A stretch of 42,501 nt of DNA from an uncultured delta proteobacterium. GTDB taxonomy: Bacteria > Myxococcota > Myxococcia > Myxococcales > Myxococcaceae. The stretch lies in contig CAVYSY010000029.1 in the NCBI GenBank assembly GCA_963771175.1, positions 1 to 42,501 of the forward strand, read 5' to 3'. Below, piece by piece: positions 1,608-25,381 of this stretch (within the stretch, counting starts at the first letter, position 1; the number at the start of each line of letters is the position of its first letter). Under the pieces are notes generated by a model. The model was not told the DNA's origin. It was given only the letters and a program-made list of their open reading frames with translations, and ran no database searches. Position numbers and translations under genes: made by a program.

Positions 1608-2430
1608 TCAGTCCCCGCCCTCCGGCCCGGGTCCGGCGGAGGAAGGGCGCTCGGCCCGGGGTGGCTCCATGAGCGAGGCCACCTCGGGCGAGTAGCCTCC
1701 CGGACCCTCGCCGTGGACGATGAGCGGCGGACGCACCGCGAGCCCCCGCTGCCTGTCCCGCACCGCGTGCACCAGGAAGCGAGTGGCCGGAGCATCCACC
1801 CGCGCATGCACCGTGCGCAGGGCCACCGGGTGGAGCCTCGCCGCCACGAGCAGCCCAAGCACCTCCGTCAGCCGCGCCGCCGGGTAGACGAGGCTCACCC
1901 GCCCGCCCGGAGAGAGCGCGTGCCGGGCCGCCGCCACCACCGAGGGCGCGTCACACGCCAACTCCTGCTTGGACAGGGCGCGCTCCTCGTCGGGGCTGAG
2001 CACCCCCGCGCGCACCGGGCGGAAGGGAGGGTTGGACACGACGTGCGCGTAGGCGCCCGAGGCGAAGAGCGTGCGGGCCTCGCGCAGGTCTCCGAGCAGG
2101 GGCCGCACCCGTGCCCTCGCAGGCGTTGAGGGCCACGGCGCGCACCAGGCGGGCGTGGACCTCGGGCTGCAGCTCGAGCGCGTCCACGGGCCCCAGGCCG
2201 AACTGACACGCGAGCAGGAAGGACACCACGCCACTGCCCGCACCGAGCTCCAGCAGGGGGCCACCGGCCTCCTTGCCCTCGGTGGCCGCGAAGGCCGCGA
2301 GCAGCACCGCATCCAGCGTGAAGCGGTAGCCACCGCGGCGCTGGAGCACCCGCACGCCCGCGGTGCCGATGGAGTCGAGCGTCTCGTCCGACGCGGGTGC
2401 GTCGTGGAAGGGGTCGGTCTTGTTGCTCAC
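1608..2430 (-). CDS. tRNA1(Val) (adenine(37)-N6)-methyltransferase family (TrmN6/YfiC-like); one +1 frameshift near 2112 as sequenced
   Basis: ORF 1951..2466 gives GYRFTLDAVLL and LLELGAGSG; ORF 1608..2333 continues with VVSNPPF. Removing one base restores ~273 aa. GTG start at 2430 with GGAG 7 nt upstream. Confidence 0.85.
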
Positions 2431-2460
2431 CACCAGACTCCGAAATCGCCGGGGGATGGT

Positions 2461-2476
2461 CCTCACTCTATCCGGT
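2461..2476 (+). repeat. 16-bp direct repeat CCTCACTCTATCCGGT (copies at 2461-2476, 4077-4092, 5598-5613)
   Basis: Exact 16-mer read three times, bracketing both toxin-immunity cassettes; its reverse strand contains a TAGAGT -10-like hexamer. Confidence 0.9.
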
Positions 2477-2496
2477 GCTCAAGGCTTCGGGGTCAT

Positions 2497-3964
<1,468 letters not shown>

Positions 3965-4112
3965 GCCGTGCGGGCGTGTGGAGGCGTTGGCAAGACGCCA
4001 CGTCCTCCCGAGTCACCCGCTCCAGGGTAACGGTCTTGTTGCTCACCACCAGACTCCGAAATCACCGGGGGATGGTCCTCACTCTATCCGGTGCTCAAGG
4101 CTTCGGGGCCAT

Positions 4113-4831
4113 ATGGCCCGAGCCCTTCCGCATCGAAAGCTGCTGTCGCTGTTCCTCGCCGCGCTGCTGCTGGCCGCGTGCGCCACCTCCTCACCTGCCT
4201 CGCACGCATGGGAGGGAGACAGGGCCTGACGACACCACCTCCTGCGACGACCCCGACGCTGACCAGTGCGTCGTGCTCGCCTGTGACGAGGGCAAGTGCG
4301 CCTTCTTCGACTGTGCGGACGTGGACCCGGAGGCGCTCACGCACGTGCCCCTGGCACACGGCGCGGAGCTCGCGCAATTCCATCGTCCGCCCTCTCGTGG
4401 CCCCGGGATTCAGCGCAACTGGCGACGCGCGGGACTTCGAGAAGGCGCCCGGCCCCGGCTGACCTTCCACTTCCGCTACCGCCAGGGCTTCCTCCCCGCC
4501 TTCCCCCGCCTCGAAGGCAAGCTGATCAAACACCACCTCTTCCCCCAGGCTCAGGAGTTCAGGGAGTGGTTCATCAGGAATGTGGATCAACATCCACGAG
4601 TGGACGATGCTGGTCCCGGAGCAGGTGCACCTGCGCATCCACCGCGGCGCGAATGGCGGACTGTGGAACGAGGCGTGGCGACAGTTCCACGAGGCCAATC
4701 CAGGCCAGGTGCCACGGGAGGTACTGATCCGCAAGGCCTTCGAGCTGGCCCTGCGCTTCGACATCGCCGGTCCCCTCAGGCCGTACTACTCTCCGGTGCC
4801 TCCACCCGGTCCCCAGCTCCTCGCTCCTTGA
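4113..4831 (+). CDS. SitA6/TIGR02269-like polymorphic toxin lipoprotein (copy 2); two +1 frameshifts (~4215, ~4582) as sequenced
   Basis: Stitched from ORFs 3867..4229, 3976..4962 and 4580..4831; LLLAAC lipobox; KHHLFPQ and HLRIHRGANGGLWNEAW motifs. Confidence 0.85.
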
Positions 4832-5581
<750 letters not shown>

Positions 5582-5697
5582 GTGTCGGACAGGCGGCCCT
5601 CACTCTATCCGGTCGTTCACATGCGTAGGACGTGGGTGTCGCTTTTCCAGCCCCGCCGGGTGGCTCCACTGGACGTGATGAGCAGCGTGCCAGCCCC

Positions 5698-12893: not shown

Positions 12894-15800
12894 ATGAGCC
12901 AGTCCGATTTCCGCCTCGCCGCCTTCCTCTCGGACCGCACCGAGGTCTTCCACTCCATCCAGCACCGCCATGAGATCTGGCGGCCCGATCCGTTCGACGT
13001 GGAGCGGGTCCACCAGGAGGCGCGCACCTCCTTCGAGCGCCTGCTCACCCGTGCCACCACGCCACCGGGCCTGGACTCGGGGCGCATCCTGCTGCTGCTC
13101 GGCGAGTCCGGCTGCGGCAAGACGCACCTCGTCCGCGCCTTTCGTGCCCGCGTCCATGAGCAGTCGCTCGGGTTCGTGGGCTACATGCAGATGACGACGT
13201 CCACGTCCAACTATGGGCGCTACGTCCTCAACAACCTCATCGAGTCGCTCGACCTGCCCTACTGCGAGCCCTCTCAGCCCGGCTCCGGATTGATGAAGCT
13301 CTCCAGCGCGCTCTTCTCGCGCTGTGGCAAGTGGGCCGCCGGCCTGTCGCAACCCGACACGGACCCGGACGACGTCCATCAGATCATCAGCGACGCGGCC
13401 GACGAGCTCAGCACCCTGCCCGCCTTCGCGGACCTCGAGCTGGATCTGCTGCGCGCGCTCCTCTACCTCCAGCGCAACGAGACGCCCATCAAGAAGCGCG
13501 TCATCAAGTACCTGCGCTGCGAGGATCTCTCCGAGTCGGACCGCAAGGTGCTCGGAGGCATGGTGCCTCGCATCCACGACGAGCATCCCAAGCAGATGGT
13601 GGAGGATCTCGGCCGGCTCGATGCGGGCACTGGAGCACTCGCTCGTGCTGTGCGTGGACCAGCTCGAGGACATCTACGAGCCCAACGACGCGGGCAACCC
13701 CTTCCGGCGGGCCATGCAGACGCTCTGCGACCTGGCCGACCGGGTGCCCTCGTCGATCATCGTCATCAGCTGCCTGCGAGACTTCTGGCAGGCGATGCAC
13801 GCGCAGCTCACGCGGCCCATGCTGGACCGGATCACCTTGGATCCCGCGCCCATCACCCTGCAGGGCCTGCGCACCGCCGAGGAGGCCCGCCTCATCGCCG
13901 AGCGGCGCCTGGAGCATCTCTACGAGCAGGAGAACGCGCCCTTCGATCCGGCCGAGCCCACCTATCCCTTCCCCCACGAGGGCTTCGAGGCGCTGGCCGG
14001 CATGCGCGCCCGCGACGTGCTCAACGAGTGCCGCCGCTACCGGGAGCTCGCCATCCGGGAGGGCCAGCTTCCCGAGCACTTCCCGCTCGTGGACGCGCTG
14101 CCGGGGAAGGGCGAGCAGGGTGGCACTCCACAGCCCCCGCCCACCGCCTCGGCGCTGGATCCGCTCTGGAACGATTTCCGGGCCGCCTACGCGGGCGCAC
14201 CTCCGGATGATGACTCCGAGCTGGCGGTGCTCCTCGCCTGGGCCTTGAGGGCCAGCGCGGACGAGGTGGACACCGGACACCGCTTCGAGGCCAAGACTCT
14301 CGGCGAGTCCATCCACGTGGACATCTCCCCCGGAGACACGAAGCTCCACGTCGCCCTGTGCAACAGCAAGCCCAACGGTGGGGCACTCGCGCGACAGATC
14401 GACCAGGCCCGGAAGGACGCCAAGGGCCGCACGCCCGTCGTCGTCCGCTCCACCGCCTTCCCCAGCAACCCGAAGACCCAGGCCGCCGAGGAGCTCGGCA
14501 GGCTCATCAGCAAGGGCGGGCGCCGCGCGGTGCTCGAGGACAGCGATCACCGCACCCTGCTCGCGTTGCGCGAGTTCCGAAAACAGCACGAGGCCCGCGC
14601 GGACCTCGCCGACTGGCTCCGCTCGGCCCGGCCCCTCACGCAGACCAAGTCACTGCGCGACATCCTCGACCTGGACCACCTCCGTCCCGCGGCCCGTCCG
14701 GCTCCCGCTTCCCAGAAGCCCGCCGCCGCTCCAGCCGTCGCCACCCAGCCGCTCCCCGTGATTCGCACCGAGCCAAAGCCCGCCGCTCCTCCGGCTCCCA
14801 CTCCCGCGCCCAGGGAGCCGCCCCGGAAGCTCGAGCCCCTCCGCATCGGTGTGCTGGACAGCCTCTCGAAGGACTCCGTCTCCCTCGAGCCCCGGGAGCT
14901 CATGCAGCACGCCGCGTTCCTCGGTGGCTCCGGGAGCGGCAAGACGACGCTCGCGCTCAACGTGGTGGAGCAGCTCCTGCTCCAGGGCATCCCCACCATC
15001 CTCGTCGATCGCAAGGGAGACCTCGCCGGCTACGCCAACGACGCCGTCTGGACGCGCCCGCTCGATGACCCGCGCCGCTCCGAGCGTCGGGCCCTCCTGC
15101 GCGAGCGGCTCGACGTGGCCCTCTTCACTCCCGGGCACCCCCACGGTCGTCCGCTCGCCATCCCCATCGTCCCCGAGGGGCTCGACTCGCTGCCCGAGTT
15201 CGATCGCAAGCAGGCCACCCAGCACGCGGCCGAGGCGCTCGGCGGCATGCTCGACTACAAGCACAACGGGCGCGACAAGTCCTGCCGCACCATCCTCACC
15301 CAGGCGATTGATCAGCTCGTGCAGCTCTCGCCCGGCGGCGTCTCCCTGGAGAAGCTCGTCTACTTCATCGACGAGAAGGATCCTCGCCTGGTGAACGCCG
15401 TGGGCAGGCTCGACACCAAGCTCTTCGAGAAGCTCGTGCAGGACCTGGAGACGCTCCGACTCAACTCCTCCGTGCTGCTGGCCAGTGGCGGCGAGAAGCT
15501 CGACATGGATCTGCTGCTCGGCCGCGGCGCCCACGCGCAACCGGGCAAGACGCGCCTGAGCGTCATCAGCACCAAGTTCCTCGGGGACAACAACAACGTC
15601 CTCTTCTGGGTGTCCCAGCTCCTCATCGAGGTGTCGCGCTGGCTCAACCGCAATCCCTCCAACGCGCTGCAGGCCGTCCTCATGTTCGACGAGGCCGACC
15701 TGTACCTGCCCGCCACGCGCCAGCCCGCCACCAAGCAGCCCATGGAGAACCTCCTGCGGCGCGCTCGCTCCGCGGGCCTGGGCCTGATGCTCGCCACCCA

Positions 15801-16104
15801 GAGCCCCGGCGACTTCGACTACAAGTGCCGCGACACCATCCGCTCCTGGTTCGTCGGCCGCGTGAAGGAGAAGAACTCGCTGGAGAAGATGAAACCCATG
15901 CTCAGCGAGGCCCGCGTGGACTTCTCCGCGAAGATCCCCACCCAGGTCACCGGCGAGTTCCACGTCCTCCGAGAGGGCAGGGTGGAGCGCGTCAAGGCCG
16001 ACCCCTCCGTGCTCGCCACCGAGCAGCTCTCGGATGATGAGTTGTTGCGCCTCGCCGCGCGTACACTGCCCGCCGCCGAGGAGGCCCGGCGCACCGGTTC
16101 GTGA
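12894..16104 (+). CDS. ~1069-aa fusion of an N-terminal AAA+-type ATPase and a C-terminal HerA/FtsK-like (DUF87/DUF853-type) ATPase; +1 frameshift near 13619 as sequenced
   Basis: Walker A GESGCGKT with Walker B LVLCVDQLE; Pro/Ala linker; second Walker A GGSGSGKT, LMFDEAD, RRARSAG and LATQSP HerA motifs. ORFs 12894..14210 and 13324..16104 join at ggccggct(c)gatgcgg. Confidence 0.85.
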
Positions 16105-16169: not shown

Positions 16170-16217
16170 GAAACCTGTCCGACAGTCGGACAGGTTTTTC
16201 CAGAACGCGCCCGGAGG
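16170..16217 (+). repeat. 48-bp REP/MITE-like element with 27-bp palindrome AAACCTGTCCGAC-A-GTCGGACAGGTTT
   Basis: Perfect 13+1+13 palindrome at 16171-16197; 44/48 identical to the reverse complement of 25099-25146. Confidence 0.9.
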
Positions 16218-16377
16218 CCCCCTACTGGACCGCCTTTCCTCGGATGGCTTGGATGCCGCCTCCACCCCCCGCGCACACCAGGCTGTGCACCAGCCTTGAA
16301 GCTCGCGAGTCATGCCTCCGGTGAAACCAGACCCGCTCCGGTGCGTCAACGAGACGGACACCTCCGGAAGAGGGGAG

Positions 16378-18181
16378 TCACCCCTCGGGGATGTCCGTCA
16401 GCGCCAGCCGGAACTTCGCCGTCTTGCCCGCCTCGATGGGCACCGACAGCTTCCGCCGCTTCCCGTCCTCGCCCTTGATGCGCAACAGGTGTCTGCCCAC
16501 CGGCACCGGCGTGTTGAACAGCGGTGTCTTCCCCAGCGAGCGCCCGTTCAGGAACACCTCGGCCTGCGGCAGGATGAGCAGCGTCAGCGATCCCTGCTTC
16601 ACGCTCCGCACGGGCTCGCCCTCGCCCTCCTTCTTCGCGGCGGCTGGCGCGTCCTCCTTCTCCTGCGTCTCCGCCGAGGGCTGGGCTCCCACGGGCGGCT
16701 GCGCGGCCACCTCTGGAGGAGTGCTCGTCGTCGGCGGCTCGATGGGCCGCATCGCCGTCAGCTCCGCCACGTTCGGGAGCGGCTCGGAGGACTCCTGCGC
16801 TTTGATCGCCGCCACCAGCTTCATCGCCCCGAAGCCCCCGCCTCCCAGCACCAGCAGCCCGAGGATCACCGCCCAGAGCCGACCCTTCCCCTTCTGCTCC
16901 GGCCCCACCTGCTCGTGCTGCGCCGTGACCGCCGTCGTCCGCTGCTCCCGCGTCACCCGCCTCCCGGTCGTGGCCACCGGACTCGTCGCCGCGGCCTCGT
17001 CCGGATCCACCCCACGCGTCGGCCGCGCGGGCTCCTCGCGCTCCCGCCGTGGCGCCGGATCCTGGCCCGTCCGCTGCTTCGCCTCCGCCTTCGCGGGACT
17101 CGGCTCCGACGGACTCCGGGGCCTCGCCGCCCCCCAGCATCCGCGCCATCCCCGAGTCCACCTGCGCGCTCGCCTCGTCCGCGCTCTCCAGCAGCCGGCG
17201 CGTCCCCTCCATCCGATCCTGGAAGTTCTCGCGCATGAAGGCCGCGCGCTGCTCCGCGTCGAAGAGCAGGTTCCCCGCCGCCGCTTCGATGGCCCGCGCC
17301 ATCTCGCGGCCGTTCGGGTAGCGCTCCTCCCGCTCCCTCGCCAGCGCCTTGAGCACCACCGCCGACACCGCCTGCGAGATGGATGGCACCCGCGCCGACG
17401 GCACCGGGATGGGCGCCTCGAGGATCATCTCCATCTCCTGGCGCTCGGTCTGCGCGGCGAAGAGGCGCTCGCCGGTGAGCATCTCGTGGAGCATCACCCC
17501 CACGGAGAAGAGATCGCTGCGGCCATCGAGCGGCTCGCCGCGCACCTGCTCGGGCGACATGTACCCGGTGGTGCCCTTCACCACGCCCACCTGCGTCTGT
17601 CCCCGGCCGTCTCGCGCCTTGGCGATGCCGAAGTCCAGCAGCTTCACCACCCCGTCGTACGTCACCATCACGTTCTTCTGTGCCACGTCCCGGTGGATGA
17701 CGGGGTAGGGCTTGCCCCCGGGTGTGGTGAAGGTGTGCGCGTAGTGCAGCGCCAGGCAGACGTCTCGCGCCACCGACAGGGTGAAGCCCGGCGGCAGCGC
17801 CCTCGCCCTCCGGCGGCACACCCCGGCGATCTGGTTGAGGTTCTGCCCCGCGATGAACTCCATCGCCAGGAAGAGGCCCTCGTCGTCCTGCCCCAGCTCG
17901 AACACCTGGGCGATGTTGGGGTGGTTGAGCGCCGCGGTGATGCGTGCTTCATCCAGGAACATGCGCTCGAACTGCTCGTCGTCCCGCGCGCCCGGGAGGA
18001 TGCGCTTGAGTGCTACATACTTGCGGAATCCGCCCGGCCCGGAGGTGAAGCCCAGGAAGAGCTCCGCCATGCCTCCCACCGACAGCTGCGCGATCACCTG
18101 GAACTTCCCGATGCGCTCGCCCCAGTGCAGATCGAGGTTGGCGGAGCTGGCTGTCGAAGCGCCTCTGGCCGGTGCGGACAT
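16378..18181 (-). CDS. Hanks-type protein kinase with atypical RDVAQKN catalytic loop (DspB-like), TM segment and C-terminal PEGA domain; +1 frameshift near 17108 as sequenced
   Basis: LSVGGMAEL, VALKRI, HRDVAQKN, DFG, GTTGYMSPEQ, DLFSVG; the downstream frame (ORF 16378..17010) gives TM LWAVILGLLVLGGG and PEGA AEVFLNGRSLGKTPL; restored ~600 aa. Confidence 0.9.
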
Positions 18182-18189
18182 GGGGTGGA

Positions 18190-18460
18190 GGATAATCCAC
18201 AACCCCTGTGGACGGCCTGTGGATGGACCCTGGCCTCCCTGTGGATAACTGGCGGGCTGATCCAACCCCTGTGGGTGGCCGGGGAAAAGCGCCAACTTCC
18301 CCACATGTAGCAGAAACGGAGAACCTCAGTCCTTCCGAGAGGTTACGGACTTTTCCACAAGCCCACACCCCCTGCTGTTGCTCCTATTTGATTCAACATC
18401 TCAATTCACTCAGTACAGAAACAGAGGGGCCTGGGGAAAGTGTGGGGTTGTGGATCGCTC
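18190..18460. other. Probable chromosomal replication origin (oriC)
   Basis: Intergenic cluster of DnaA-box-like 9-mers: TAATCCACA 18193, TGTGGACGG 18207, TGTGGATGG 18218, TGTGGATAA 18240 (perfect), TGTGGGTGG 18270, CGGGGAAAA 18280, TTCCCCACA 18297, TTTTCCACA 18351 (consensus), AAGCCCACA 18359, TGGGGAAAG 18432, TGTGGGGTT 18441, TGTGGATCG 18449; DnaA-trio-like run 18372-18389; AT-rich tract 18385-18425; skew flips here. Confidence 0.82.
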
Positions 18461-18469
18461 CCGGGCGGC

Positions 18470-18757
18470 TCAGTGCCAGCCCCGGGTGAGCGAGACGAGC
18501 GTCAGGCGGGCCTTGGGGGCATCGAGCTCGACGCTCACGTCACAGCCGGCCAGCGGGAACTCCAGGGTGAGGGGAGCGTGATGGGGCAACAGGGAGCGCT
18601 CGTGCCAGGCCTGGACGGCCAGCCGGAAGAGCTCGCCCAGCAGGGCGTGGCGGGTATCCAGAGGCAGCAGGTCCATCCGCGGCTGGAGGGCGAGCGGAAC
18701 GAAGACGGTGAAGGACTGGGCCAGTTGCTCGGAGACAGCGGATTCGGTGGAAGCCAT
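18470..18757 (-). CDS. Small hypothetical protein (95 aa)
   Basis: ATG at 18757 with GGAGG directly upstream; globular-looking sequence MASTESAVSEQLAQSFTVFVPL... Confidence 0.7.
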   Translation of the reverse strand: MASTESAVSEQLAQSFTVFVPLALQPRMDLLPLDTRHALLGELFRLAVQAWHERSLLPHHAPLTLEFPLAGCDVSVELDAPKARLTLVSLTRGWH

Positions 18758-18945
18758 GCCTCCGGGTATTGCGAGATTCGTACCGAGAGTGAACCCCAGG
18801 AATTCCGGGGTGTTGGGGGAGTCCCCCTCGGGGTGGACCGTAGAAACTCCAGTGTTCCCGAGGGTGACCCGGTGAACGGGACGGGGTGGACCCCCTCGCA
18901 CCCAGGGGGGGCGAGGGCTATAGCCGAGAGGTCAGGGGTCCACAC

Positions 18946-21129
18946 ATGAGGCACGAAGCGAGCGCAGTCGGCTGGGTGTGGGTGCTGGGGGTGCTGCTGC
19001 TCACGGGGCCGCTGGGGGCCTGCCGTGACGAGAAGCCACCGCTGGTGGGCTCCTCGGGCCAGGTGCGCTTCTCGCAGCAGGCAGTGGCCTTTCCGGCCAC
19101 GTACGTGGGTGTCTCGCGGGAGGGCGAGCTCCGGGTGGGCAACGCGGGCCGGGCCCCGGTGCGGGTGACGTGGGGCCCGGTGCCGGCGCCCTTCGCGGTG
19201 GAGGGGCTGCCGGAGCGGGTGGAGGTCTCCGCGGAGTCCACGGTGAAGGTGCGCTTCGCCCCCACGGCGCTGGGGACGTACGAGGCCACGCTGGTGGGCA
19301 CGGAGGAGGGGGGCCGCACGGTGACGCTGCGGCTGACGGGCGAGGGCGTGCAGTCGCCGCCCTGCCCCATGCCGGTGACGTGCCACCGCTTCACCTTCGA
19401 CGCGGTGAGGGAGGAGTGCGTGGAGGAGGTGCTGGCGGACGGCACGGCGTGCGATCCAGGCAACGCGTGCGTGCTGGACGCGGTGTGCCAGGCGGGCCGG
19501 TGCAAGGGACGCGAGCTCGTGTGCGACGACGGCAACGCGTGCACCACGGACGTGTGCGGCCCGCTGGACGGGTGCCAGTCGGTGCCAGCGCCGCCGTGCC
19601 CAGGGGATGGGGCGTGCCAGGAGGGCTGGTGCGATCCAGGGAAGGGCTGCCAGCTCCGGCCGGCGGCCGACGGCACCTTCTGCGGCGAGGCGCGCGAGTG
19701 CGACCTGGCGGACGTGTGCGTGGAGGGGGCGTGCGTGAAGCGCGACCCGCCGGACGGCTTCGTGTGCGCGCCGGAGTCACCCTGCCAGGGCGAGGGCAGG
19801 TGCCAGGGCTCGACGTGCGCGCGGCCGCGGGCGATGCCGCTGGTGCCGGACTGGACGTACGACGCGCAGGCCGAGAACAAGGAACTGCACGACGTGCTGG
19901 TGGGCCCCGAGGGGGACGTGACGCTGGCGGGCTTCTTCGCGAGGCCGGTGCTGGGGGCGACGGAGGCCTCGCGGGTGGAGTCCCAGCTGTCGGCGCGGCG
20001 CTGCATGCTGTGGAACGAGCGGCTGCTGTGCATGGACTCGCCGCAGCAGGGGAAGGTGTCGCTGATGGAGCGGGCGACGGGGGCGCCGCGGTGGACGTTC
20101 GACCTGGCGAGGGCGAGGCCGGACATCGCGGCGAAGTCCTCGACGCTCTTCATGGCGCGGCTGGCGGTGATGGCGCCGGATCGCCTGGCGGCGCTCTTCG
20201 AGGCCTACCCGGCGGGCCAGAGCTCGGCCTCCCTGTGCCGGCTGTACTACCTGGTGGTGCTGGACGCGGCGGGGGGGATGGTGTCGGCGCAGGGGCTGGA
20301 GGATCCGCTGCTGTCCGAGTGCAACCACCCGCACCCCTTCGGGCTGGCATCGGACACGGTGGGGGACCTGTACGTGACGTTCTCCCCGACGGTGAAGGCG
20401 GAGGCGCCGCTGTCGGCGGGGGCGCCGACGCTGGTGATGGCGTTCTCGTCGGACGGAGTGCCGCGCTGGAGGAGGACGCTGCCCTTCCCGGGAGGAGAGC
20501 TGGGACTGGTGCGAGGGCTGCTGCTTCCGGAGGGAGGCACGGAGCCGCTGCGCACGTCGGATGGTACGCCGGCCTCGGCGCTGGAGTGGAAGCTGGGGCG
20601 GGCGGTGGCGACGCGCGAGGTGCTGGTGCCGAGCCCCCGGGACACGACGGTGAACCCGGACGTGGTGCCGGTGGAGTCCCCCGAGTTGAAGGGGTACACG
20701 GTGCCAGGGCTGAAGCCGGCGTGGACGTACCGGCTGCCCACGGGGACGAGCTTCTCCTCGAAGGAGCTGCGGCTGGGGACGTGGCCGGAGGGTGGGGTGT
20801 CGCGGACGATGGTGCTGGGCTTCGCGGCGGAGGGGCCGAAGCCGCTGCTGGTGGGGGTGCGGGCGAAGGACGGGAGCGAGGCCTTCCGCTGCGAGTTGGG
20901 CTACACGCCTCGGAGCGTGCCGCAGCTCTTCGAGCTGGGTCCGGGGGCGCTGACGCTGATGGACGGGGCGCGGAAGTGCGGCGAGTGCGATCCGCCCTTC
21001 GCGAGGAGCATGGCGAGGTTCCAGCGCTTCACCCTGCCGGGGCTGAAGCCGGCGGAGGAGCCGTGGCCGGGCACGTTCGGCGGACCGGGGCACGACCACC
21101 ACGAGGATCCGGTGCGCGCGGCGCCGTGA
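18946..21129 (+). CDS. Cysteine-rich ('tenascin-like') lipoprotein: Ig-like N-terminus, CDDGNACTTDVC-type repeats, probable beta-propeller C-terminus
   Basis: LLLTGPLGAC lipobox; VGNAG...VKVRFAPTALGTYEATL Ig-like domain; repeated DGTxC / CDDGNxCTxDxC units; WTYD/WTFD/WTYR repeats. Confidence 0.85.
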   Translation: MRHEASAVGWVWVLGVLLLTGPLGACRDEKPPLVGSSGQVRFSQQAVAFPATYVGVSREGELRVGNAGRAPVRVTWGPVPAPFAVEGLPERVEVSAESTVKVRFAPTALGTYEATLVGTEEGGRTVTLRLTGEGVQSPPCPMPVTCHRFTFDAVREECVEEVLADGTACDPGNACVLDAVCQAGRCKGRELVCDDGNACTTDVCGPLDGCQSVPAPPCPGDGACQEGWCDPGKGCQLRPAADGTFCGEARECDLADVCVEGACVKRDPPDGFVCAPESPCQGEGRCQGSTCARPRAMPLVPDWTYDAQAENKELHDVLVGPEGDVTLAGFFARPVLGATEASRVESQLSARRCMLWNERLLCMDSPQQGKVSLMERATGAPRWTFDLARARPDIAAKSSTLFMARLAVMAPDRLAALFEAYPAGQSSASLCRLYYLVVLDAAGGMVSAQGLEDPLLSECNHPHPFGLASDTVGDLYVTFSPTVKAEAPLSAGAPTLVMAFSSDGVPRWRRTLPFPGGELGLVRGLLLPEGGTEPLRTSDGTPASALEWKLGRAVATREVLVPSPRDTTVNPDVVPVESPELKGYTVPGLKPAWTYRLPTGTSFSSKELRLGTWPEGGVSRTMVLGFAAEGPKPLLVGVRAKDGSEAFRCELGYTPRSVPQLFELGPGALTLMDGARKCGECDPPFARSMARFQRFTLPGLKPAEEPWPGTFGGPGHDHHEDPVRAAP

Positions 21130-25146: not shown

Positions 25147-25372
25147 GCCAGACTGAACCCGGCGGCCTCCCTGGTTTCGGAGCGGATGCCCGCCCTCCGC
25201 GGCATTCAGCAACCTCGTGGGCCTGGCGCTCCATGACCTCTCCGAAGCGACCCATCATGGGGAGGCTCCCGCGCCAGCACCGCGGGAGAGTGGACGGCCG
25301 GATTGTGGAGAACTTGGGGACGGAGCAGGGCGGCTCGAAACGTCTTCGTGTAACCGATGGGCCCCGAGCCAC

Positions 25373-25381
25373 TTATCCACA
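25373..25381 (+). promoter_or_regulatory. Perfect DnaA box TTATCCACA 4 nt upstream of the msrB start
   Basis: Exact consensus 9-mer; near-matches at 25058 (TTGTCCACT), 25079 (TGCGGAAAA) and 25304 (TGTGGAGAA) in the same intergenic region. Confidence 0.55.

Follow-up and report, generated by a model that had tools for sequence, protein, structure and literature searches.

Is the spacer rich in DnaA boxes that separates a protein kinase gene from a small ORF the origin of chromosomal replication (oriC) of its bacterium? The DNA analyzed here (the window) is the entire contig C29 (42,501 b) of a myxobacterial assembly (G000) of 58 contigs and 9.83 Mb, with 69% G+C and 82% completeness; genomes of relatives from the same genus range from 9 to 14 Mb. 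The original prediction placed the chromosomal origin in this spacer and regarded it as unlinked to dnaA. Both neighbours that it named, a kinase gene and a small gene, were recovered (Table 1); the spacer between them is 287 bp, and 5 bp separate the kinase ATG from the first DnaA box. It was also right that the window carries no dnaA, dnaN, gyrB or gidA: none of the 32 window ORFs scanned against Pfam matched the DnaA, DnaN, GyrB or GidA families, and dnaA and gidA of this genome both lie on a separate contig, C44. The coding signal of the kinase gene changes frame near position 17010, and the C-terminal part is probably frameshifted in this assembly. In addition, the kinase gene (window 16346–18304) and gidA (C44:147.9–149.8 kb) are each broken across several reading frames, which are probably assembly indel errors and not real pseudogenes.

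Table 1. Features of the DnaA-box element, its neighbours and the second box group (positions refer to the window unless a contig is named).
Feature	Position	Strand	Evidence or remark
Conserved single-copy DnaA-box element (whole module)	18187–18457		Match to sequence model R1, 217.7 bits; top box cluster of the genome
DnaA box TAATCCACA, 1 mismatch	18193–18201	+	Box scan
Two boxes 11 bp apart, CCGTCCACA at 18207 and CCATCCACA at 18218	18207–18226	-	Within invariant block CCCTGTGGACGGCCTGTGGATGG
Perfect DnaA box TTATCCACA (plus strand reads TGTGGATAA)	18240–18248	-	One of 4 perfect boxes in 9.83 Mb
Degenerate box CCACCCACA, 3 mismatches, core kept	18270–18278	-	CCTGTGG core conserved
Box TTCCCCACA, 2 mismatches	18297–18305	+	Within invariant block AACTTCCCCACATGTAGCA
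Box TTTTCCACA, 1 mismatch	18351–18359	+	Directly followed by a second CCACA core, AAGCCCACA, 18359–18367
G+C-rich spacer, 12 bp, from box to trinucleotide repeats	18360–18371	+	Fits the rule of at most 16 bp (PMC8287927)
Six NTN triplets CTG CTG TTG CTC CTA TTT, 3'-NAN-5' DnaA-trio-like on the other strand	18372–18389	+	Rule of PMC8287927
AT-rich tract, 67.5% A+T; candidate unwinding element or promoter region	18382–18421		40-mer composition
Conserved block CAGTACAGAAACAGAGGGGCCTGGGGA	18411–18440		Alignment conservation
Box CGATCCACA, 2 mismatches	18449–18457	-	CTGTGGA kept in most relatives
Ser/Thr protein kinase gene	16346–18182	-	PF00069, E 1.5e-35; reads away from the element
Small conserved ORF, 95 aa	18470–18757	-	Without family; ends 12 bp right of the element
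Second, smaller box group, gidA-gidB spacer	C44:147,807–147,899 (locus L055:8807–8899)	boxes on one strand	TTATCCACA, TTCTCCACA, TTGTCCACA

Comparison of the nine-mers in 18173–18457 with TTATCCACA gave 14 with at most 3 mismatches, 7 with at most 2 and 3 with at most 1, in agreement with the approximately 12 box-like nine-mers predicted, among them the perfect box at 18240 and TTTTCCACA at 18351. The spacer contains 10 CCACA/TGTGG cores in 290 bp, whereas the genome average of 1.32 per kb would give 0.38. Over the window as a whole, box matches with at most one mismatch number 7 against 1.35 expected, a count reached in none of 100 shuffles. Over all 58 contigs, the element is the best 300-bp box cluster (score 11; the next two score 8), well above chance, as is expected of oriC. 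Perfect boxes number just 4 genome-wide, and C29 has two of these. The spacing of the boxes at 18207 and 18218 (11 bp) and at 18218 and 18240 (22 bp) places them on one face of the helix. The block CCCTGTGGACGGCCTGTGGATGG is unchanged in 13 of 13 genus sequences, and the 20-mer GACTTTTCCACAAGCCCACA from the region of the 18351 box is present, with at most 2 mismatches, in 24 of 151 genomes of the family. The second perfect TTATCCACA of the window (25373, plus strand) is located 7 kb right of the element and 69 bp from TTCTCCACA (25304, minus strand); this pair (25304–25381) lies upstream of an MsrB (SelR) domain and has a cluster score of 6, the fifth in the genome.

As for the layout downstream of the 18351 box, it was compared with the basal unwinding system, which requires, after a DnaA box, three or more NAN trios on the partner strand, set off from the box by no more than 16 bp of spacer (Pelliciari 2021, PMC8287927). 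The box TTTTCCACA, its 12-bp spacer and the six triplets satisfy this rule. The AT-rich tract that the original prediction put at about 18385–18425 was found at 18382–18421, so that a candidate A+T-rich unwinding element, as judged by base composition, adjoins the boxes; 40-mers that reach 65% A+T make up about 0.2% of the genome. Only the first 2–4 trio triplets are kept in relatives, and two Myxococcus-like genomes have CTA CTA CTT CTA at the trio site, i.e., 3'-GAT GAT GAA GAT-5'. The element therefore shares with the basal-unwinding oriC, as described in PMC8287927, a strong box directly followed by another CCACA core, then 12 bp of G+C-rich spacer, three or more NAN trios and an A+T-rich tract, as well as many further boxes, a single copy and a position near dnaA. 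It differs in that its trios are weak (GAC GAC AAC GAG GAT AAA, 3'-5'), in that it lies 73–88 kb from dnaA and, in the genus, off the switch of strand composition, and in that it is known from sequence alone.

Other roles of the spacer were considered as well. An RNA gene was rejected, since the Rfam search over 17500–19500 returned one sub-threshold match outside the element (E 0.85). A promoter or terminator was rejected too, as no consensus match, including a sigma-70-type promoter, was found in 17900–19100. The conserved block at 18411–18440 gave no Rfam match and no consensus promoter or terminator.

The conservation of the element is considerable. The spacer was recovered in 17 of 17 other genus genomes searched, and the box positions are unchanged across 13 genus genomes; whole blocks are invariant and more conserved than the flanking coding DNA, including the kinase coding sequence. 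A model of the element built from sequence only (R1) was run on 151 family genomes with completeness of at least 95% (one of them, G081, marked as unpublished) and matched 132 of them, representing 32 of 39 genera. The genome studied here has a single match, and so, with 3 exceptions, do the 132 matching genomes. Among 17 aligned elements from 6 genera, box positions are kept in every one, and each has an A+T-rich 40-mer (60–70% A+T) in the same place despite varying sequence. Thus, there is one copy per chromosome in a conserved place, another property expected of oriC. Of 11 contexts from other genera, 10 have the same kinase next to the element and 7 have the small ORF there (tblastn). As for linkage, the element lies 73–88 kb from dnaA, always on the same side, in all five complete genus genomes; the apparent lack of linkage to dnaA is thus an effect of the fragmented assembly, and this part of the original prediction did not hold. 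In single-contig genomes of other genera, the element is located about 21–28 kb from contig position 1, with two cases at 95–96 kb.

Earlier predictions for relatives were also compared. Table S1 of PMC8287927 lists a 29-mer for the DoriC record ORI94030396, the predicted oriC of Myxococcus fulvus HW-1. Of 12 sequences searched, 2 contain the partner strand of this 29-mer, with no mismatch, within the homologous element, indicating that ORI94030396 marks the same element in another genus; for relatives, the origin reading is thus found in a database already, as a prediction. The record itself is computational and was taken here through the 29-mer in that table; the corresponding stretch of the window differs from the 29-mer by an indel and does not follow the trio rule. 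The expectation that standard annotation would miss the locus is thus half true, as Ori-Finder/DoriC appears to pick the element as oriC in Myxococcus. For M. xanthus DZ2, an Ori-Finder origin of 307 bp is given (PMC12390754), and the M. xanthus origin has been set at position 1 by GC skew, 30–35 kb from parAB (PMC3778016; PMC3899335). A literature search found no experimental mapping of an origin within the family.

Taken as the chromosomal oriC, the element would be filled by DnaA, which would oligomerise from the TTTTCCACA/CCACA pair over the trios and open 18382–18421, and both forks would start there. The rank of the box cluster in the genome, the order of box, 12-bp spacer, six NTN triplets and A+T-rich tract, the persistence of this tract in 17 of 17 elements despite sequence change, the nearly always single match in 132 of 151 family genomes, the distance of 21–96 kb from position 1 in single-contig genomes of other genera and the M. 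fulvus 29-mer inside homologues all speak for this reading. Strand composition right at the element agrees with it in part: third-position skew is +0.10 to +0.23 in the first 10 kb to the right in 8 of 8 genomes and about zero in the 10–20 kb to the left.

The skew flip reported for the contig is real but local. The cumulative G-C minimum of C29 lies at 18,411, and the contrast between the flanks of 18 kb at 18,500 ranks 2nd of 15,925 positions tested genome-wide; it is carried by five or six genes with extreme third-position skews of 0.2–0.5. The large plus-strand ORF at 13297–16104, which has weak matches with HerA/TrwB-type P-loop proteins, is C-rich at third positions (-0.21) and is among the genes that create the local V-shaped skew.

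On the scale of the chromosome, the pattern is different. Strand composition was examined in 8 regions, only 2 of which come from Myxococcus-like genera. The cumulative skew of C44 falls steadily for 148 kb and then rises, with a minimum at 149,638, which is 1.8 kb from the DnaA boxes of the gidA-gidB spacer and at least 72 kb from the element. In three relatives, the minimum lies 3.5 kb (G004), 3.4 kb (G008) and 3.9 kb (G016) from gidA-gidB and 106, 180 and 105 kb, respectively, from the element; in the fifth genus genome (G015), the 168-kb interval between the two sites is flat and the minimum falls inside it. Thus, the GC-skew minimum is at gidA-gidB in 4 of 5 genus genomes and at the element in none. 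Among 5000 artificial origins assembled from real contigs of the same genome, the error of the skew minimum had a median of 7 kb and a 95th percentile of 41 kb and never reached 72 kb. The sign change of strand asymmetry expected at an origin is therefore absent from the element in the genus; it is present there in both Myxococcus-like genomes examined (G137 and G125), where the minimum is less than 1 kb from the element and the 41–49 kb interval is about neutral. In G122, which represents a second genus with large genomes, the interval is flat throughout, with a minimum 14 kb away from the element, while the shared genes are still positive. The proximity of the minimum in G137, G125 and G122 favours the element as oriC.

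The interval between the two box clusters (41–184 kb) was further characterized by the skew at third codon positions, with the gene strands kept apart. Its values are +0.105 in G004, +0.083 in G016, +0.062 in G008, +0.036 in G015 and +0.124 in the part on C44; for reference, left arms show -0.10 to -0.12 and right arms +0.07 to +0.115. Interval genes common to other genera reach +0.18 to +0.33 in both orientations. The interval is thus right-arm-like in 5 of 5 genus genomes and left-arm-like in 0 of 8 genomes. If both forks started at the element, the DNA on its gidA side should belong to the left arm; in the genus, this DNA is G-rich at third positions like a right arm for 56–184 kb, in both orientations and most strongly in old shared genes. 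The noise of window skew in this genome has an SD of 0.017 at 45 kb, 0.010 at 110 kb and 0.007 at 180 kb. The G004 interval (+0.040, with a left arm of -0.077) departs by more than 10 SD from the value predicted with the origin at the element (SD 0.010 at 110 kb); given this noise, the interval fits neither simple model in about half of the genomes. An inversion was rejected as the cause of the skew pattern, since the interval is collinear across 5 genomes of 4 genera, except for one 2-kb block.

Other indicators of fork direction were less consistent. Polarised substitutions were compared in two species pairs: the asymmetry of C>T versus G>A flips at the element in the pair G008/G015 and is neutral in the pair G004/G016. 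The equilibrium skew from the full rate matrix is positive in G004/G016, negative in G008/G015, and noisy; it was not relied on, because the implied G+C of 0.34–0.64 is far from the real 0.69. Gene orientation was dropped as a guide to fork direction, being too weak (54.6% of 4156 genes are co-oriented with the G-rich strand). Orientation of tRNA and rRNA genes gave nothing to compare between the clusters, as 0 tRNA genes were found in the five intervals and 0 Rfam matches in 140 kb of G004.

The site of the skew switch itself has the gene order gidA-gidB-parA-parB-bactofilin on C44 (Pfam). The gidA-gidB boxes form the second-best cluster in each region examined; on C44, a perfect box TTATCCACA overlaps the GTG start of gidB, and two more boxes have 1 mismatch. 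Both box clusters are conserved across genera, and they lie one on each side of dnaA; the switch at gidA is 36–108 kb from dnaA in the 4 complete genus genomes where both could be placed and 49 kb on C44. Hence, the family has two conserved DnaA-box sites that flank dnaA, and anatomy and strand composition favour different ones. No unwinding site is visible at the skew switch, because the gidA-gidB spacer is short (about 110 bp, with 3–5 boxes, one over the gidB start codon) and contains neither an A+T-rich 40-mer nor a box-spacer-trio layout; the spacer looks like a regulated promoter region. In E. coli, oriC adjoins gidA (mnmG) and lies 42 kb from dnaA, so a switch at gidA away from dnaA, as seen in this genus, is not unusual in itself. 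Unlike the E. coli arrangement, the gidA side of the genus offers a 110-bp spacer with 3–5 boxes and no visible unwinding element.

Another origin near the skew switch was rejected, since C44 120–190 kb contains no combination of boxes and an A+T-rich tract, and no clustered DnaA boxes were found beside dnaA in C44 190–203.7 kb. An A+T-richer palindrome upstream of gidA was rejected as an origin as well, being a dispersed repeat with 72 copies. This palindrome, AAACCTGTCCGAC(A/T)GTCGGACAGGTTT with flanking A and T runs, is present in the window at 16174 and 25122, and the copy upstream of gidA, one of the 72 in the genome, sits at the skew minimum; the repeat resembles a bidirectional terminator or a REP-type element.

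The reading that we favour, tentatively and at somewhat below an even chance, is that the element is a secondary, origin-proximal DnaA locus with origin anatomy and that the replication arms start near gidA-gidB. The element would then be a conserved module for DnaA assembly with a full origin anatomy, most likely not the place where the arms begin; the evolutionary-average start would be about 100 kb away, at or a few kb from the gidA-gidB-parAB cluster. As the element, 72–180 kb from such a start, would be copied early, it would bind many DnaA molecules shortly after initiation and may act as an origin-proximal DnaA sink or regulator, like E. coli datA and the B. subtilis DnaA-box clusters (DBCs). 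In addition, the array probably sets transcription of the kinase, as only 5 bp lie between the first box and the start of this gene. The sequences show directly the box array, its conservation, single copy and position, and the pattern of strand composition; that DnaA binds to the array, is titrated by it and controls the promoter is inferred. The use of the element as the chromosomal oriC, proposed originally, appears possible but rather doubtful: anatomy, single copy, conservation in the family and the M. fulvus 29-mer stand in its favour, while asymmetry in the genus switches at gidA-gidB and the DNA left of the element is right-arm-like. It would imply that the skew pattern of the genus misleads.

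DnaA-box clusters outside the origin are exemplified by E. coli datA and the Streptomyces D78 cluster; neither these nor the B. subtilis DBCs are known to have the unwinding layout of box, trios and AT-rich tract. Loci of the datA type are dispensable, and their deletion leads to early or excess initiation. The DBCs are origin-proximal and restrain initiation (Okumura et al. 2012, PMC3245932). With this type of locus, the element shares dense boxes outside the arm start, a position near the origin, an intergenic location and possible regulation of a neighbour. Its distance from the arm start is 72–180 kb as measured from the skew minimum, which applies only if the skew marks the origin. The element, in contrast, does carry such a layout, with trio-like repeats and an A+T-rich tract that has been conserved; its boxes are packed more densely than those at the apparent origin, and its conservation extends over the whole family. 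The IHF-site pattern WATCAANNNNTTR, a feature of datA, was not seen by eye in the element or in the 17 aligned elements. Several observations argue against the secondary-locus reading: the A+T-rich tract and trio layout are kept across genera, and a pure DnaA sink needs neither; the skew minimum is near the element in G137, G125 and G122, and the interval is about neutral in Myxococcus-like genomes; the substitution asymmetry (C>T versus G>A) changes sign at the element in the G008/G015 pair; the DoriC pick in Myxococcus is the element; and gidA-gidB shows no unwinding site.

The intermediate values of the interval would be explained if both clusters fired. In such a case, there would be two DnaA-dependent start sites flanking dnaA (gidA-gidB/parS and the element), with relative use differing between genera: the main start would be near gidA-gidB, the element would fire second, later or less frequently, and the interval would be copied in either direction in different cell cycles. 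This would account for the strongly skewed arms, which always begin outside the cluster pair, for the 41–184 kb interval, which is close to neutral in four genomes (G125, G137, G122 and G015) and more or less fully right-arm-like, in part weakly so, in G008, G016 and G004, and for the drop of third-position skew to about zero over the last 10–40 kb before the element and its jump to +0.10 to +0.23 after it in 8 of 8 genomes. The skew minimum is at most 4 kb from one or the other cluster in 6 of 8 regions, and the conservation of each cluster across genera fits as well. We nevertheless regard this reading as unlikely. The gidA-gidB site shows no unwinding element, and accessory DNA accounts for part of the G122 flatness. 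The genes in which the dip before the element sits are orthologous, and in the genome studied here a few of them have extreme gene-specific skew; the dip may therefore reflect these genes themselves. Moreover, to our knowledge, no natural bacterial chromosome with two DnaA-dependent oriC-type origins is known.

Bipartite origins offer a comparison. That of B. subtilis flanks dnaA. The same was described for Helicobacter pylori (PMC3479198). Here, too, there are two groups of DnaA boxes, one on each side of dnaA; however, in known bipartite origins a single gene (about 1.5 kb) separates the groups, whereas the two groups of this family are 41–184 kb apart. A natural single-chromosome Vibrio cholerae with two functional origins on fused chromosomes (Bruhn et al. 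2018, PMC6284228) is the nearest case found and a precedent for two active origins on one replicon; its origins are of different types and were brought together by chromosome fusion, whereas here both would be DnaA-box sites on one old chromosome.

A purely transcriptional role, in which DnaA would repress or time the divergent kinase gene, the A+T-rich tract would be its promoter and replication control would play no part, seems very improbable. The kinase promoter must lie inside the element, because the ATG is 5 bp from the first box, and the constancy of the kinase neighbour (10 of 11 contexts) agrees with this role. In G+C-rich genomes, promoter regions exceed genes in A+T, which could account for the tract. 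Known DnaA-regulated promoters, however, carry far fewer boxes than the 7–10 found here in helical register; furthermore, no sigma-70-type consensus promoter was found in 17900–19100, and the box blocks are better conserved than the adjacent kinase coding sequence. The remaining probability belongs to something else, beyond the readings considered.

The choice between these readings matters because Myxococcus xanthus serves as a model for development and for how chromosomes are organised, and its published origin, in the sources cited above, was placed by GC skew or Ori-Finder. If replication does not start at the element, databases list a wrong origin for these bacteria, and the element would be a DnaA-binding regulator built like an origin. 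If replication does start there, GC skew is off by about 100 kb across a whole genus. Firing of both sites would give the first case of two DnaA origins on a natural bacterial chromosome.

Two repeats were also noted in the window. The segments 2415–3965 and 4031–5582 are a tandem duplicate (90.9% identity) with Gmx_para_CXXCG (PF09535) genes. In addition, the segment 35840–39668 has a 3.9-kb copy in the same assembly (C28:113,618–117,478; 91.75% identity). Relatives place this segment between two DNA blocks that are joined directly in C28; either the segment sits elsewhere in this genome, or two haplotypes are present, or the assembly contains a misjoin.
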